This document shows, piece by piece, positions 1 through 9,703 of a stretch of DNA of 10,504 bases. Positions within the stretch are counted from its first letter, which is position 1. Each line of letters starts with the position of its first letter. The position numbers and the translations under genes are program-made. The notes beneath the pieces were generated by a model, which saw only the letters and a program-made list of their open reading frames with translations, had not been told where the DNA came from and did not search any database. The stretch comes from an archaeon. GTDB lineage: Archaea; EX4484-52; B79-G9. The stretch covers positions 1 through 10,504 of the forward strand of contig JBDRKP010000047.1 in the NCBI GenBank assembly GCA_043813875.1, in the 5' to 3' direction.

Positions 1-188
1 TGTTCATGACAGGCATAAAATGCGAGAACCACTCGGCATCAATAATCCTCCTGAAAAAGATATACTCTATCGACAACACAAAAATATCCCATGCAAAAAA
101 AGAGCGCATCGACAAGCAATATTACATAGATTTCAGGATAACAAAAGACGATGCAGAAGACATCATACGCTTGAGCCAACAAAAGTGA
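1..188 (+). pseudogene. 3' part of a HEPN-domain toxin gene (MNT-HEPN type); runs off the left edge and is probably C-terminally truncated
   Basis: Translation GIKCENHSASIILLKKIYSIDNTKISHAKKERIDKQYY has the K-x-E-N-H and R-x4-Y pattern of archaeal HEPN proteins. It stops early (RLSQQK*) where it collides with the convergent AlbA-family remnant. Confidence 0.65.
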
Positions 189-689
189 CATACCCTCTTT
201 TTTCCATATCTTTCAAGTCAGATCTTGCTGTTTTATCCGAAACATCAAACAATTTTCTATAATCTCTCGGCGCAAGCTTATTGGTTCTCAAATACGCAAC
301 TGCCCTCCTCTGCCTGTCATTCAAATCCCTCAGGACTTCTTCAACCGGAAGCTTTTCTGCCCTGGCGGGTCCCTTGAATTCAATAACAAAATAATCGTCT
401 TTCTCTGCATAATGCGGCTTTTCAAGACCCCATTTACTCATTGCATCCTCCATCCTCAAAATACCGCTCCCTCTCTCATCCATAACTCCTTTTCTAAGCA
501 GGACCTTTGTAATGATCTTGTTGCGACTATTGGGCTTATAGTCATGCTGTTGAATCTTTTCAACAGTCAATGGCCTCAAAAGCCCGCCCGGGCTGCTAAT
601 CTATATCCTGTCATCAAACATCCTGATAAGAACATCTTTTCCATACTGGTGGTAATCCCTATGAACCGCAGATTGATTACCGCTTCTTT
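163..689 (-). pseudogene. 3' remnant of an AlbA_2/HATPase_c_4 (RecG C-terminal-like)/wHTH gene
   Basis: Minus strand reads KEAVIN, then a 1-nt frameshift at ~670, then AVHRDYHQYGKDVLIRMFDDRI, an in-frame TAG at 601-603, then ISSPGGLLRPLT...DERGSGILRM...LNDRQRRAVAYL...TARSDLKDM. Colinear with the intact gene at 1301-2689; 5' half absent. Confidence 0.85.
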
Positions 690-2689: not shown

Positions 2690-2720
2690 GCGAATACATA
2701 ATGCATGCGAATTATTTAAA
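2687..2720 (-). promoter_or_regulatory. TATA box and direct-repeat pair at the AlbA gene start (likely leaderless)
   Basis: Minus strand TTTAAATA at 2713-2720. 9-bp direct repeat CATGCGAAT at 2687-2695 and 2704-2712, one copy overlapping the start codon. Confidence 0.5.
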
Positions 2721-2746
2721 TCAGGCGCTGCATGAACCCGCGCACA

Positions 2747-3376
2747 CACTCCGGCAAAGCCGCATGGGTGGAACCCGCCAAAATAGAGAGCAGGAGAAGC
2801 GGGAATATCCTCCGGACGCTATAAGAGAAGCTGTTGTAAATGCTTTGATACATAGGGACTATCGCGAACCTTCGGAAGTGAAGATGTTCATATTCGACAA
2901 TCGTCTGGAGATTACAAATCCAGGCACTTTTCCAAAAGGCGCAACACCCGATAATCCGGTACATAAACCCAGGAATCCGCTTCTATGCGAATATATGAAG
3001 GACATCCATTACATAGAGAAGTATGGCTCAGGAATCTATCTGATGCAGAAGCTTTGCAAAGAGTGGGGAATCGGAAAGCCGGAATACACACTTGACAGGT
3101 ACTGGACAAAAATCGTTTTTAAGCCAAGTAAGGCAGGCATCTTATTGTCCGTTATAAGGAAGGAAGGAAGGGATAGGTATAAACGAAAGGCAGACTGCTG
3201 CCGTAAATTATGTGCTTGAACATAATTCGATTACAAACGAGGAATACCAGAAAATAAACAATATTGGTCGGACAACTGCAAAGCTTGATCTGAAAGATTT
3301 GGCTGAAAAGGGCCTGCTTGAGCCCAAAGGCAGGGGAAAGGGCACGTATTATGTGATAGGCGCGACCATAAAATGA
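2747..3376 (+). pseudogene. Second 3' remnant of an AlbA_2/HATPase_c_4/wHTH gene, two frameshifts
   Basis: HSGKAAWVEPAKIE, shift at ~2789, QEKREYPPDAIREAVVNALIHRDY..FDNRLEITNPG..PRNPLL..IEKYGSGI, shift at the (AAGG)4 tract, GINERQTAAVNYVLEHNSITNEEYQKINNIGRTTAKLDLKDL..GRGKGTYY, TGA 3374-3376. AlbA domain missing. Confidence 0.88.
3156..3171. repeat. (AAGG)4 microsatellite at a frameshift
   Basis: Removing one unit gives VIRKEGIGINERQ and rejoins the HATPase and wHTH frames. Confidence 0.85.
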
Positions 3377-3393: not shown

Positions 3394-3409
3394 TTGATGA
3401 AAAGACTGT

Positions 3410-3627
3410 AGGCAGGGATTGAATGAGCGGCAAGTCAAGGCCGTACTGTATGTGAAGGAGAAAGGGAGAATAACAAACAGGGAGTACCAGAAATCGAACT
3501 ATGTTTCAAGGCAGACCGCATCAAGAGAACTGTCATCCCTTGTTCAGGCAGGCGTACTTAATCAGGTAGGCATGACCGGGAAAAGCACATTTTATGAACT
3601 ATCTCAAATGCCTCACAAACGCCTCAG
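3410..3627 (+). pseudogene. Isolated C-terminal winged-HTH remnant of a third AlbA-family paralogue
   Basis: GLNERQVKAVLYVKEKGRITNREYQKSNYVSRQTASRELSSLVQAGVLNQVGMTGKSTFYEL. Ends in two 11-bp units (AAATGCCTCAC 3606, AAACGCCTCAG 3617), then joins unrelated DNA without a stop. Confidence 0.82.
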
Positions 3628-4574
3628 ACTGACATTCCTCATCCCTTCACGCGCCCGCGAAATACTTCGGCGCCCTCCTCTACGCCATAAACCCGTTCGT
3701 CTACGCGCGCTTCCTTGCCGGCCACATCAACCTCCTGCTCGCCTACGCAATAACCCCTCTGGCTGTCATCTATATCATGCGCTTCGCAAAGGCGCCGGAC
3801 AAAAAGAACACCATCCTGACCGCCCTCATAATCACCGCAACAGGCATCCTCAACATCCACAACCTCTTCCTCACGCTCGTCATATTCTTCGCCATTATCT
3901 GCGCAAGACCAAAAAAACATCACATCATCCCCGCCCTGAAAGTCCTCGCCATCGTCCTTCTCCTCAACTCCTACTGGCTCCTGCAGGAGCCACAGCAAAA
4001 AATATCGACAATCACAGAAGACGACATCTCCGTCTTCCGCTCAAGGCCCACGGACGGCTTCAACGCCGCCTTCACCCTCGCATCCATGCACGGCTTCTGG
4101 AGAGGCGGCTACAGCTACGCAAAAGACCGCATCCCGTACTGGCCCATCCTCTTCATCATCATCCTCTTCCTCTCGGTCCACGGCTATGTCATCTCAAAAG
4201 ACGAATACAGGAACGCCTTCATGATGCTGTGGATAATATCGCTCATAATCGCCGCAGGAGTCACCATAGGATACACAAAAGGCATATATCTCTTCCTCTA
4301 CGACAACATATTCTTCTTCAGGGGCTTCCGCGAGCCCCAGAAATTCATCGCCCTTGCGGCTTTGGCCTACGCCTACCTCGGCAGCCTCGGGACAGAAAAG
4401 CTGGGGAAAAAAGGCTACATCCTCATCATCCTCCCCGTCATATACTCGTACACCATGTTCTTCGGCTTTTCAGGCGCCCTCCCCGCCCAGGACTACCCAC
4501 AAGACTACTACGACATAGACGCCTACTTAAACAACGACAAAAGCGACTTCAACACCCTAGTCCTCCCCTGGCAC

Positions 4575-4632
4575 CAATATCCTCAAGCAGACCTGCCTTG
4601 AGGATATGGCAAAGCCATTGGCTTTGACAATA
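4575..4632. mobile_element. Miniature palindromic insertion: 48 bp between CAATA direct repeats (53 bp net)
   Basis: CAATA at 4575-4579 and 4628-4632. Stems ATATCCTCAAG/CTTGAGGATAT (4577-4587/4597-4607) and CAAAGCCA/TGGCTTTG (4610-4617/4619-4626). Deleting 53 bp restores WHQYMDYSWN. Confidence 0.75.
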
Positions 4633-4784
4633 CATGGACTACTCATGGAACAAAAACAAAGACAAGAGACTGGCAAACGTAGCCCGCTCATTCTTCAAAA
4701 AACCCATGATAACAGGCGACAACATGGAAACAGGAGGAATCTACACAAGCAGCAACAACCCGGGATCAGGATACATAGAATCGA

Positions 4785-5239
4785 TAATAACCCGGAACAC
4801 AACCAGTTTAGGCCAATCACTCGCAAAAATAAACGTAAAATACATCCTCCTGAAAAAAGAAGTAGACTACGAGCCCTACAAAAATCTTTTAAACAACCAG
4901 ACAGACATCACATTGATAAAAAACACCACAAACCTCCTGTTATACATCAACATCATCCCCACCTACAAAATCTACCAGACAGGCGGCGAGGACATAACCC
5001 CATTAGCCTACGAAAAGATCAAAGACAACCACTACACCATCACCCCGCCCGAAAAAAAATACGTAGTCCTCGCAGACACATACAGCGACTCATGGACCCT
5101 TGGCGCATCAAAGAAACTCGATAACCACCCCACAAACATCTGGGAATACAGTAAAGACACGGAAATAAAAAAGACATCCGGCGACATCGGATACGTCATC
5201 TCGATAATGACGCTCCTCATCATCATATCATTCTCCTGA
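4785..5239 (+). repeat. Copy A of the dispersed direct repeat (3' end of the membrane protein gene)
   Basis: 50 bp identical to copy C (4903-4952 = 7539-7588), 49 bp identical to copy B (5102-5150 = 6477-6525), and colinear with copy D. Confidence 0.95.
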
Positions 5240-5332: not shown

Positions 5333-5545
5333 ATGTCAGAAGCAGATACATTAAAAGATATCAAAGAAGACCTGAATTTCCTTAAAACTAAGATACTGGA
5401 GATAGAAATAACAGTAAACGAGATTGATTCAGATATGCATAAAACACCGAATCCGGATTATATAAAGAGACTGGAAAATATTGAAAAAGAAGACAAACGC
5501 ATTCACTTCAAAAATATAGCCGTATTCGACAAGCATTTCGAATAA
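5333..5545 (+). CDS. Putative antitoxin paired with RelE-type toxin (coiled-coil N-terminus, DUF2683-like C-terminus)
   Basis: 70-aa charged protein with SD, directly upstream of the RelE-type toxin; PNPDYIKRLENIEKE segment resembles archaeal RelE partners. Confidence 0.65.
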   Translation: MSEADTLKDIKEDLNFLKTKILEIEITVNEIDSDMHKTPNPDYIKRLENIEKEDKRIHFKNIAVFDKHFE

Positions 5546-5562
5546 TATTCCGGTGACTCTTT

Positions 5563-5823
5563 ATGCCTTATGAATTTGAGATCACAGAAACCCTGGACCG
5601 GAAATTCAAAAAAATCAAAAAAAAGAACCCCGTCTTGTTTTCAACATGCCGCAAAAAAATAATCGAAATAATAGAGAATCCGCACCATTATAAGCATCTG
5701 AAATATGAGAACCGTTTCAGGGTGCATGTCGGCGGCTCATATGTCATGACTTACAGGATTCATGAAAACAGGCAGGTTGTCGAATTTCTTGATATAGAGC
5801 ATCACGATTATGCTTACATGTAG
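5563..5823 (+). CDS. RelE/ParE-superfamily toxin (mRNA interferase)
   Basis: 86-aa basic protein with IIENPHHYKHL..FRVHVGGSYVMTYRI..VEFLDIEHHDYAY; SD GGTGA at 5552-5556. Confidence 0.85.
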   Translation: MPYEFEITETLDRKFKKIKKKNPVLFSTCRKKIIEIIENPHHYKHLKYENRFRVHVGGSYVMTYRIHENRQVVEFLDIEHHDYAYM

Positions 5824-6272: not shown

Positions 6273-6427
6273 ACTCCTCCTATTTTCTGTGATTTAACTA
6301 GCTCCCACGCTCAAGTAAAAACAATCTGCAAGAAATCCTGTAAGATTAAGCCCGATCATACCGCAAAATCTTCAATCGCCACAAATAAAAGACAAAAAGC
6401 AGACAAAAGATGTGTATATATCTTCCG

Positions 6428-6602
6428 GGAAAAGTACATCGTCCTCACAGACACCTGCAGCGATGCATGGACCCTCGGCGCATCAAAGAAACTCGATAAC
6501 CACCCCACAAACATCTGGGAATACACAGGAGACACAGAAATAAAAAAGACATCCGGCGACACCGGCTACATCATCTCGATAGCAACACTCCTGCTCATCA
6601 TC
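6428..6602 (+). repeat. Copy B (short) of the membrane-gene 3' repeat
   Basis: EKYIVLTDTCSDAWTLGASKKLDNHPTNIWEYTGDTEIKKTSGDTGYIISIATLLLII matches the last ~58 codons of copy A. Confidence 0.95.
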
Positions 6603-6637
6603 CCCCGCAAGAGAAAATGATCGCCATCACATATTTA

Positions 6638-6907
6638 TCAGGAATCTTCAGAATCAAGATATAGTCAATCCAATAACTATTAGATTATTGGATTGAGTAT
6701 CCTGAGCTATTTTGAAAACTTGTTTTTCAAAATAAGCAAGTTTTCAACCTCAGTTGAAAAGCTTCGAACGCTAGTGAGATGATTTTCAATTTCGCAAATA
6801 AACTTGCGAAATGCTCGGGAGCTTGCCACATAGTGGCAAAGATATGGGAATCCAACATGAGTTCAAAAGTTGTTGGATTCACTGTAAATCATCAAGAATA
6901 TCTGATG
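6638..6907. repeat. Array of ~9 abutting and nested inverted repeats
   Basis: Stems: 6638-43/6700-05, 6644-48/6656-60, 6665-76/6685-96, 6708-18/6724-34, 6741-48/6753-60, 6789-97/6804-12, 6813-16/6819-22, 6823-29/6833-39, 6848-57/6871-80, and a bulged stem at 6890-6907. Confidence 0.9.
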
Positions 6908-7403: not shown

Positions 7404-7416
7404 AAAATATAAACCT
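7404..7416 (-). promoter_or_regulatory. TATA box for hicBA
   Basis: Minus strand AGG-TTTATATT (7406-7413), same form as the RelE-operon promoter. Confidence 0.6.
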
Positions 7417-7420
7417 ATCT

Positions 7421-7870
7421 ATGACAAAAAACACAGCCGCATTAGGCCAATCACTCATAAAACTCAACATAACATACATCCTCCTAAAAAAAAGAAGTAG
7501 ACTATCAAACCCTGCGAGCAACTCCTGAACACCCGGCAAGACATCACATTGATAAAAAACACCACAAACCTCCTGTTATACATCAACAACAACCCCACCT
7601 ACAGGATCTGCCAGACAGGCGGCGAAGACATAACCCCCCTAGCCTACGAAAAGATTAAAGACAACCGCTACGTCATCACCCCGCCGGAAAAAAAGTACAT
7701 AGTCCTCGCAGACACATACAGCGACTCATGGCCCCTCGGCGCATCAAAGAAACTCGATAACCAGCCCATAAACATCCGGGAATATACAGAAATACAAAAG
7801 AAATCCGGCTACGTCATCTCGATAATCACATTCATGTATCTTCTTCTCATTTTGAGAATGCCTCATCATC
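7421..7870 (+). repeat. Copy C of the membrane-gene 3' repeat (pseudogene fragment)
   Basis: MTKNTAALGQSLIKLNITYILLKK, two +1 shifts (A8 run at 7486-7493 and ~7506), then DITLIKNTTNLLLYINNNPTYR..GYVISIITFMYLLLILRMP. Confidence 0.95.
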
Positions 7871-8090
7871 CATCGAAAGAGGCCAGAAATCGCATCATGG
7901 CACACGATGAGGAAAACAGGCTTCAAGGAGGCGAACTTCTCATGCCACAGCAGCAGCAAGTGATGTCTCAGTCGCGATTGGTATTGACACGTCCTTCTCA
8001 GAATCTTTGAGATCAAGATGTATTCTGACAAGTATCATGTTCGGCTTATTATATATATATAATAGTATATATAAAACATCCCGGAACACG

Positions 8091-8149: not shown

Positions 8150-8309
8150 CGCGCAGGAACCCGCCCCATGGCCCGCGGCAGAATGCGGACGATTCTGCGC
8201 CGGCGTCCCGCGCAGTCTGGGCGCTGCGTGGAACATAAGGAAAATTTCGGCAATGCATCATCCGCATGTTAAGATAAATTGACGGCTGTATAAAAAATTT
8301 AACAGAAGC

Positions 8310-8340
8310 TTTATAAATATGTAAACATAATTTTACATAT
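8310..8340 (+). promoter_or_regulatory. TATA box plus palindromic operator for MNT-HEPN (likely leaderless)
   Basis: TTTATAAA 8310-8317; perfect inverted repeat ATATGTAAA-N6-TTTACATAT (8317-8325/8332-8340) overlapping ATG 8339. Confidence 0.72.
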
Positions 8341-8851
8341 GTTAAAACTTTTTGACGATTTGGAGCCGTTTTTCACGGACAATTACAGGAGAATCAATGT
8401 ACGCGAATATGCAAGGATCATGAAAACAACACCCCCGACAGCGTCAAAATTACTTGCATACTACCACGAAGAAGGGCTCCTCAACAAAGAGGAAGACAGG
8501 AATTATATATTCTATGCGGCAAACAATGAAAGCTTTATGTTCATACACCTCACCAGGGCATACTGGCATCTTAGACTTGAAAAAGCAGGCATCAAAGACT
8601 ACCTCGAAAAAGAACTCATATCCCCGCTCGTGATACTCTTTGGCTCCTGCTCCAAGGCAGAGATAAAAAAAGATTCTGACATAGATATTGCGATATTTGC
8701 ATCATCACAAAAAAACATCAGCTTAGAGATTTTTGAGAAAAAACTTAACAGGAAAATACATCTCTTCCAGTTCAAAAAAAGAGATGATATAGGAAACCCG
8801 GAATTACTGAACAACATATTAAACGGCTTCATACTCATGGGAGGATGGTAA
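8339..8851 (+). CDS. Minimal nucleotidyltransferase (MNT) antitoxin with N-terminal winged HTH
   Basis: INVREYARIMKTTPPTASKLL (HTH) and LFGSCSKAEIKKDSDIDIAI (GS-x10-DxD, Pol beta NTase motif). Confidence 0.9.
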   Translation: MLKLFDDLEPFFTDNYRRINVREYARIMKTTPPTASKLLAYYHEEGLLNKEEDRNYIFYAANNESFMFIHLTRAYWHLRLEKAGIKDYLEKELISPLVILFGSCSKAEIKKDSDIDIAIFASSQKNISLEIFEKKLNRKIHLFQFKKRDDIGNPELLNNILNGFILMGGW

Positions 8852-8852
8852 T

Positions 8853-9263
8853 ATGGACTGGACAGCATGCGTAAATAAATCCCTTGCAAAAAAAGCAAAA
8901 ACAGATACAAATCTATTGATATCTCTTAAAAAATCATCCGCAAAAAAGCTTGAAAGCGAGAGGCTGCTCGTGCTAAATGACACAACTGCGGCATCAAAAG
9001 TAAGCCTCGCTTACGATGCGCTAAGAGAGATACTGGAATCTCTTGCAATAAAAAACGGTTACAAGATATACAACCATGAATGCTACACGGCGTTCCTCAA
9101 GGAGATAATGAACGAATCGGCGATTGCAGACAAATATGACAGATTCAGAAAAATAAGAAATGCAATCAACTACTATGGCAAAGACATCACACCAGGCGAG
9201 GCAGAACCTGTTCTTGCAGAAATCCGCGAACTTGTTGAAAAAATAAACAGCCTCCTTGTTTAA
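8853..9263 (+). CDS. HEPN-domain toxin
   Basis: AYDALREILESLAIKNGYKIYNHEC..YDRFRKIRNAINYYG; starts 1 nt after the MNT stop. Confidence 0.85.
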   Translation: MDWTACVNKSLAKKAKTDTNLLISLKKSSAKKLESERLLVLNDTTAASKVSLAYDALREILESLAIKNGYKIYNHECYTAFLKEIMNESAIADKYDRFRKIRNAINYYGKDITPGEAEPVLAEIRELVEKINSLLV

Positions 9264-9282
9264 GATGAACACATAATGTAGT

Positions 9283-9703
9283 GAATCCACACTCGAACAG
9301 AACACGACAGGACTTGGAAAACTCCTTGCCCCGCTCAACATAAAATACATCCTCCTAAAAAAAGAAGCAGACTACGAGCCCTGCAAAAATCTTTTAAACA
9401 CCCAGGAAGACATCACGCTCATAAAAAACACGACAAACCTCCTGTTGTACATCAACAACAACCCCACCTACAGGATCTACCAGACAGGCGGCGACGACAT
9501 AACACCCTTAGCCTACGAAAAGATCAGAGACAACCGCTACACCATCACCCCGCCCGAAAAAAGATACATAGTCCAGACAGACACATACGACAACACATGG
9601 ACACTTGGCGCATCAAAAGACCAGCCGACAAACATCTGGGAATACAGTAGAGACACAGAAATAAAAAAGAGATCCGCATACATCATCTCGATAATGACAC
9701 TTC
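9283..9703 (+). repeat. Copy D of the membrane-gene 3' repeat (open frame, no natural start)
   Basis: ESTLEQNTTGLGKLLAPLNIKYILLKKEADYEPCKNLLNTQEDITLIKNTTNLLLYINNNPTYRIYQTGG..AYIISIMTL; in-frame TAA at 9274-9276 just upstream. Confidence 0.95.

Follow-up and report, generated by a model that had tools for sequence, protein, structure and literature searches.

An interrupted glycosyltransferase gene and its setting

The window analysed here, the whole 10,504-nt stretch of the archaeal contig JBDRKP010000047.1, carries on its plus strand a protein-coding gene that is split by a short palindromic insert. The upstream part of the gene (3633-4579, plus strand) lies in frame 0; homology sets in near 3651, opposite residue 88 of P0001, an intact homologue. 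The downstream part (4634-5239, plus strand) lies in frame 2, where it opens with ATG 4634, the conserved Met of the family's YMDY sequence, and runs to the natural stop. Frame 0, read from 3633 to the TGA at 4599-4601, and frame 2, read from ATG 4634 to 5239, are halves of one gene. The preliminary description had claimed that exact removal of the insert restores this gene, and the claim holds: computed deletion of 53 nt gives ...VLPWHQYMDYSWN... and restores the LPWHQYMDY motif. The insertion point is between the Tyr and Met codons of the conserved LPWHxYMD motif.

The motif, in the form LPWHxYM(D)(F/Y), is unbroken and free of any extra residue in each of the 10 full-length homologues (10/10) and in the 8 of 8 returned by a second search; the homologue alignment, which had been set in advance as a test of the insertion, shows no extra residues at the site in any homologue examined. 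Among the 169 proteins collected, the motif is present in 146, and homology is lost directly past the Tyr in P0067 only, and possibly in P0086. An alignment of 70 family members has P383 and W384 invariant and H385 and Y387 nearly so. These alignments show that the insert truly interrupts the reading frame, and does so within the motif that the family conserves best.

Full-length homologues are 591-725 aa long, and precomputed annotation assigns PF11847 (GT-C_AftD) to five of the ten that are listed; a Pfam scan confirmed this domain for P0001 and P0005. The AlphaFold model of P0001, the closest intact homologue, has a mean pLDDT of 95.6, and its best match among solved structures is the mycobacterial arabinofuranosyltransferase AftD (6W98; E 4.6e-10, TM 0.62), followed by oligosaccharyltransferases of the AglB/PglB type. 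The Pfam assignment and the structural match to AftD together identify the host gene as that of a membrane GT-C (AftD-like) glycosyltransferase. In the P0001 model the break falls in the beta-strand 387-389, inside the C-terminal domain. A functional split of the enzyme into two polypeptides was considered and is unlikely, with the break at no domain border and beside the invariant P383 and W384; as a separate polypeptide, the downstream half would presumably be made without an export signal.

The gene copy in the window is damaged at a second place. A tblastn search with P0001 shows that the copy spans residues 88-586 only, and the first ~87 codons were found nowhere in the window by the same search. 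On its 5′ side the copy adjoins a fragment of a helix-turn-helix (HTH) gene that is read in another frame. Because these ~87 codons are missing and the remainder abuts an unrelated fragment, the window copy cannot encode a working enzyme as it stands. This truncation, like the second interrupted copy described below, is new relative to the preliminary description. The abutting HTH tail occupies 3419-3632 (plus strand) and, near 3633-3650, meets the glycosyltransferase copy where its 5′ end is cut short. The GC content at 3400-4600 is 52-54%, with a strong C-over-G skew, against about 40% elsewhere in the window. An open reading frame of 402 aa (frame 2, 3419-4627) overlaps the real frame in this region and appears to be a by-product of composition.

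The 3′ end of the same GT-C gene occurs four times in the window, at 4628-5239, 6417-6626, 7414-7875 and 9283-9702. These copies are nested, running from P0001 residue 88, ~527, ~436/470 and ~436, respectively, to the end of the gene; their DNA identity is 63-89%, homology stops at the gene end, and cassettes of 0.8-1.6 kb lie between them. Such an arrangement resembles the outcome of serial integration or recombination at the gene's 3′ part more than that of duplication in place. The cassettes between the gene-end copies hold pairs of the toxin-antitoxin type (863-1138, 5333-5823 and 8339-9263): a HicB-like antitoxin at 863-1138, a ParE-family toxin at 5563-5823 preceded by a small open reading frame, and a nucleotidyltransferase at 8339-8851 followed by an open reading frame of 136 aa with no Pfam match. 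An intact AlbA_2 / HATPase_c_4 / HTH gene lies on the minus strand at 1301-2749, and three fragments of similar genes are found at 163-579 (minus strand), 2701-3219 (plus strand) and 3419-3632 (plus strand), the last being the HTH tail noted above. Clusters of adjacent AT-rich palindromes with arms of 9-16 nt are present at 6661-6760, 8042-8083 and 8292-8354; they are intergenic, follow gene-end copies 2 and 3, and share no sequence with the insert. A weak Rfam match to the C/D-box sRNA sR11 at 6551-6605 on the minus strand (23.3 bits against a gathering threshold of 39, E 0.74) is most likely due to chance.

Anatomy of the insert

Two direct copies of CAATA mark the junctions. The left copy (4575-4579, plus strand) consists of the codon CAA and the TA of the Tyr codon, the right copy lies at 4628-4632 (plus strand), and 48 bp separate them; about 0.001 such 5-bp junction repeats would be expected by chance. 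The insert proper is 53 bp long and is placed here at 4580-4632 (plus strand), which is one of six equivalent registers whose first base falls anywhere from 4575 to 4580.

The 48 bp had been described as made up almost wholly of two adjacent palindromes, the first starting within the target bases ATA, and both statements proved exact to the base. Palindrome 1 (4577-4607) starts within the left CAATA and has fully complementary arms of 11 nt (4577-4587 and 4597-4607; 100%) around a 9-nt loop in which two to three additional pairs are possible. Palindrome 2 (4607-4629) has a perfect core with 8-bp arms at 4610-4617 and 4619-4626, extendable to arms of 11 nt (4607-4617 and 4619-4629; 91%, one mismatch). 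The two palindromes abut and tile 4577-4629, exactly 53 nt and identical with the insert in one register, and their arms have no sequence in common.

As single-stranded DNA, 71 nt of the plus strand fold at -17 kcal/mol, against -7.67 +/- 2 for shuffled sequences (z -4.67), and 0 of 200 shuffles fold as well; the minus strand gives z -4.39, and the RNA fold over 101 nt gives z -3.71. Terminal inverted repeats (TIRs) are absent in all six registers, with a matching terminal run no longer than 2 nt and agreement at 6 of 12 positions at best, which bears out the earlier statement that the unit is not a standard MITE. By hand count the insert has 50% GC and no strand skew, whereas the GC skew of the host gene is -0.24 to -0.47, and its composition is thus foreign to the gene in which it sits. 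An in-frame TGA (4599-4601, plus strand) lies within the 3′ arm of palindrome 1, and the upstream frame stops there after reading six foreign residues (PQADLP). Rfam searched at E <= 1 has no match at the insert site.

Excision at the RNA level, as an archaeal bulge-helix-bulge (BHB) intron, was also considered. Archaeal mRNA introns are small, the length of 53 nt is comparably small, and the exon sequences UAGUCC and GGACUA can pair, but this pairing lies 12-17 nt away from the junction. In none of the 16 registers tested (0/16) do flanking helices enclose two 3-nt bulges with a central helix of 4 bp between them; the best register reaches three of four central pairs and one of five outer pairs. 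Removal as a BHB intron, taken together with the assembly artefact considered below, is given next to no weight.

The same break in a second, diverged copy

An all-against-all protein search returned P0067, a protein of 85 aa that is 88% identical to the end of the upstream half and whose terminus, ...LPWHQYPQADLP (WHQYPQADLP), is the same six-residue read-through into the insert. A second protein, P0165 (209 aa), is 84% identical to the downstream half, and its first residues are exactly MDYSWN. P0165 comes from an NCBI record named 'MAG: archaeon' (ABIG84_04110) and presumably shares one 11,198 bp contig with the intact paralogue P0001 (ABIG84_04040), since both are listed at 11,198 bp and carry locus tags of one series. 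P0165 and the window copy are alike about 73% identical to P0001, and the interrupted copies therefore form a lineage of their own.

The occurrence of the same read-through and the same break in a different, diverged sequence excludes an artefact of assembly and shows that the insert is not confined to this contig. With the second copy at 84-88% identity, the insert is real and older than the divergence of the two copies. Comparison of the predicted proteins suggests that a related genome seems to carry the insert at the same spot, where its first 21 nt only are attested, at the protein level.

Two further proteins end or begin close to the site. P0166 (211 aa, 59% identical) starts with MYMDYSWN, two residues before the break site, and P0086 (439 aa, ~33% identical) has a complete N-terminus and ends 11 residues past WHMY. 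Either could represent another break at this residue, or simply an open reading frame that is truncated or lies at a contig end.

The substitutions that separate the interrupted copies are unevenly distributed. Between the window copy and P0067/P0165, 43 of 276 comparable positions differ, and these differences number 4/92 in the most conserved third of positions, 16/92 in the middle third and 23/92 in the most variable third, so that conserved columns are avoided (Mann-Whitney p = 5e-5). To score column conservation, 148 other family members with a length of 450 aa or more were used, columns of less than 50% occupancy being dropped and P0067, P0165 and the window's own P0168 and P0169 being left out of the set. 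A shared insertion in a copy that has been dead ever since would lead one to expect an even spread of differences. The plainly dead 3′ fragments of the same gene in the window served as a control, and they too show dN/dS values of 0.30-0.37 against copy 1 and mostly also among themselves, with a value of 0.62 for copies 2 and 3 that covers 52 codons only. Selection-like divergence can therefore predate the arrival of a fragment in this region.

The pattern is compatible with three readings, namely recombination with functional alleles, an insertion that is recent or occurred independently, and expression that has been retained. A mosaic or gene-conversion signal was not detectable around the insert, in a stretch that is conserved in all comparisons; of the 60 residues around the site, 54 match the intact paralogue. 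Recurrent site-specific insertion would place the same small element in both diverged copies, either independently or by homing-like transfer. Two recent insertions would account more easily for the selection-type pattern of the 43/276 differences, the target is the family's most conserved motif, as homing elements prefer, and P0166 and P0086 may be further breaks at the same residue. These two proteins could equally be contig-end or truncated open reading frames, however, and the comparison is at the protein level only; endonuclease and transposase genes are absent nearby, and the dN/dS values of 0.30-0.37 in dead 3′ fragments mean that a selection-like pattern need not indicate a recent event. 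On balance, repeated insertion at this site is improbable.

Origin of the insert and comparison with known systems

The reading preferred here, at a probability of roughly 45%, is the inherited insertion of a very small, structure-defined hairpin element of 53 nt, including one CAATA. The unit could be a new kind of TIR-less miniature element, or a terminal-only remnant of a larger hairpin-ended element or insertion sequence (IS). A non-coding unit of two abutting hairpins would have entered the GT-C gene between the Tyr and Met codons by one of two routes. A 5-nt staggered cut followed by fill-in would leave a true CAATA duplication, whereas strand-specific integration on the 3′ side of a CAATA target would leave an apparent one if the element itself ended in CAATA. 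Either way, the outcome would be a +2 frameshift, with the frame closing at TGA 4599-4601 and the rest of the gene remaining as a separate open reading frame from ATG 4634. A single insertion would have preceded the split between the window lineage and the second archaeal MAG and would have been inherited since, now residing, in the window, in a gene copy that has lost its 5′ end. The sequence also allows a two-step reading, in which hairpin 2 entered with duplication of CAATA and hairpin 1 (24 nt) followed with duplication of ATA.

Directly observed are the insertion and its anatomy, the lack of it in homologues and the matching break in a second, diverged copy; arrival as a mobile unit, the mechanism of cutting and inheritance from a single event are what we infer from them. 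The exact tiling of the insert by its two palindromes points to a process that handles hairpins as units, and not to random filler. Against inherited insertion of a hairpin element stand the single known site, the lack of a transposase gene in the window and the failure to fit any defined transposon class, and the avoidance of conserved columns needs an extra assumption, whether recombination, independent insertions at the same site, or retained function.

Searches for further copies bear on the question of mobility. Within the window, hairpin 1 matched only itself when up to three mismatches were allowed, and the sole matches of hairpin 2 were itself and its own reverse strand; of the insert's k-mers of 9-12 nt, one 10-mer and nine 9-mers recur in the rest of the window, which is the level expected by chance. 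An exact 21-mer of hairpin 1 was found at one locus only in 185,579 species genomes, a set to which the source genome evidently does not belong, and this locus lies in a bacterial coding region, has no hairpin and matches by chance; as an exact match was required and the set lacks the source genome, the scan is weak evidence. A blastn search of plasmids and phages gave only matches at E values of at least 4, and the window holds no transposase, endonuclease, tnpA or tnpB gene. With one site known, the insert is at most a candidate mobile element.

The preliminary description had proposed either a tiny mobile element or a scar of snap-back synthesis. The precise 53-bp insertion relative to every homologue examined is upheld, and the collections searched gave no second site of a mobile element. 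Snap-back synthesis is weakened and, given arms that do not replicate the flanking sequence, can be rejected as the only origin. The suggestion that the hairpin arrays of the region were built by insertion found no support, as the other hairpins (6661-6760 and 8042-8083) share no sequence with the insert. At the paralogous gene ends no empty site could be reconstructed, and the regions downstream of the four gene-end copies do not align.

A one-off repair scar would have formed when a break was mended with captured or templated filler, the repeat reflecting a staggered break or microhomology, and the result would be non-mobile. That only one insertion site is known and that the unit matches no transposon class are consistent with such an event. 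The intergenic DNA of the window is also rich in adjacent palindromes of similar size, for example at 6661-6760, and a captured 48-bp piece could therefore look like the insert. Yet end-to-end tiling by palindromes is unexpected of random filler. Snap-back repair in particular should copy the flanks, but the flanks account for no more than 3 nt (ATA) and 2 nt (CA) of the arms, and there is no source for the remaining arm sequence within the 10.5 kb. A repair scar is accordingly regarded as a doubtful alternative, albeit one of some weight, to the inherited insertion of a hairpin element.

Small hairpin repeats are common in prokaryotic genomes, but one seldom sees how they arrive. In this case the site, which lies within a conserved protein motif, can be restored to its empty state with single-base accuracy. 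No standard transposon class fits a TIR-less unit of two hairpins with a 5-bp flanking repeat. If further copies exist, the unit would be among the smallest mobile DNA units known in archaea and a model for the growth of hairpin clusters; should the interrupted gene still be expressed, archaea would have their first candidate for translational bypass; and if neither is the case, what remains is an inherited scar in a decaying copy of the gene, with no more than local interest. Clean and unusual in its anatomy, the insert gains weight from being shared across two genomes.

Several classes of small elements offer themselves for comparison. Like MITEs, which depend on a DDE transposase, the insert is short and non-coding and has a short direct repeat (CAATA) on both sides, as a target-site duplication would leave, but MITEs are defined by TIRs related to those of a parent transposon, and the insert has none in any of its six registers. 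Repeats of the REP / RAYT type carry a GTAG or CGTC tag at one end of the palindrome. The insert region differs in having no such tag; GTAG, CTAC, CGTC and GACG all have 0 occurrences within 4575-4632. Double-hairpin elements in the mitochondria of Allomyces were reportedly described by Paquin in 2000, and sponge mitochondria are likewise said to hold repetitive hairpin-forming elements. The GC clusters of yeast mitochondria, GC42 among them, form hairpins roughly 42 nt in length, with AG or ACT repeats on either side (PMC4478555, in excerpt). According to the excerpted sources, mitochondrial hairpin elements are, unlike the insert, organellar and GC-rich, with 5-25 identical copies per mitochondrial genome; the insert has an archaeal host, one known site and a 5-bp flanking repeat.

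The 50-nt cassette of phage T4 gene 60 and the byps of Magnusiomyces (27-55 nt) are frame-breaking inserts that are bypassed by ribosomes and are thought to have spread as miniature mobile elements, and a take-off codon in the 5′ side of a stem is presented as a key requirement for bypass (bioRxiv 10.1101/2022.08.31.505936, in excerpt). With these cassettes the insert shares a length of about 50 nt, the breaking of a frame, location in a conserved gene, matched end codons and a take-off position in the 5′ side of a stem. It differs in that no stop or unreadable codon follows take-off, its Shine-Dalgarno-like sequence is misplaced, and the host copy is truncated.

If bypass were programmed here, ribosomes would leave the message at CAA 4575-4577 or UAU 4578-4580, land at CAA 4628-4630 or UAC 4631-4633, and make an uninterrupted protein. 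The take-off and landing codons would be matched (CAA/CAA or UAU/UAC) at a distance of 53 nt, which falls within the 27-55 nt of mitochondrial byps and near the 50 nt of gene 60 in the excerpted account (bioRxiv 10.1101/2022.08.31.505936). Take-off would lie in the 5′ side of the strong stem, at 4577-4587 (UAU and the third base of CAA), and the gene makes little use of the codons that follow, UAU (3 of 38 Tyr codons) and CCU (1 of 23 Pro codons). The selection-like substitutions between the two interrupted copies would fit as well. UAU and CCU are nonetheless ordinary sense codons, with the stop seven or eight codons later, and the only Shine-Dalgarno-like sequence, GAGG, lies 24 nt before the landing codon and not at ~6 nt. 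The window copy, without its first ~87 codons and abutting an unrelated fragment, yields no working enzyme here, and the intact paralogue P0001 is apparently on the contig of the second interrupted copy. A review of archaeal recoding, as excerpted, describes hopping only in phage T4 and yeast mitochondria (PMC8211752). Programmed bypass at this site is thus very improbable. By analogy with byps and gene 60, the insert might conceivably be an archaeal counterpart, a miniature mobile hairpin element tolerated through ribosome hopping; the odds of this are long, and hopping, if true, would explain the selection-like pattern in both diverged interrupted copies.

The remaining comparison is with elements of the IS605 family type. 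IS608 is cleaved 19 nt 5′ (left) and 10 nt 3′ (right) of the feet of two similar hairpins, with no duplication (PMC3201880, in excerpt). The stem of palindrome 1 contains the left junction of the insert (4579/4580), the right junction falls 3-6 nt past palindrome 2, and these junction positions, together with the unlike hairpins, exclude an end geometry of the IS608 kind. A loose comparison of hairpin 2 with guide sequences of the IS608 kind gave no fitting pairing between guide and cleavage site.

In Haloquadratum, repeat-mediated deletion is reported to reduce IS605-type transposons and palindrome-associated transposable elements (PATEs) to terminal-only elements of 52 bp, such haloarchaeal forms being those of HqIRS46 and ISHwa23, and six strain-specific insertions of the 52-bp form suggest that mobilisation is possible (PMC3119063, in excerpt). 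PATEs make no target duplication and integrate next to a targeting oligonucleotide of 4-6 nt that can be mistaken for part of the element (PMC3119063, in excerpt). As far as the excerpted account goes, the palindromes of PATEs, unlike the unrelated hairpins of the insert, resemble each other and those of IS605-type elements. The insert further differs from PATEs in its flanking 5-bp repeat, which may reflect either a genuine duplication or a target next to an element end of identical sequence, and in having neither tnpA nor tnpB in the window nor a known further copy. Like the PATEs of that account, it is archaeal, about 52-53 bp long and TIR-less, with near-terminal palindromes and too little length to encode anything. 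By this analogy, the 52-bp PATEs are the nearest archaeal precedent for the insert in size and in absence of TIRs.
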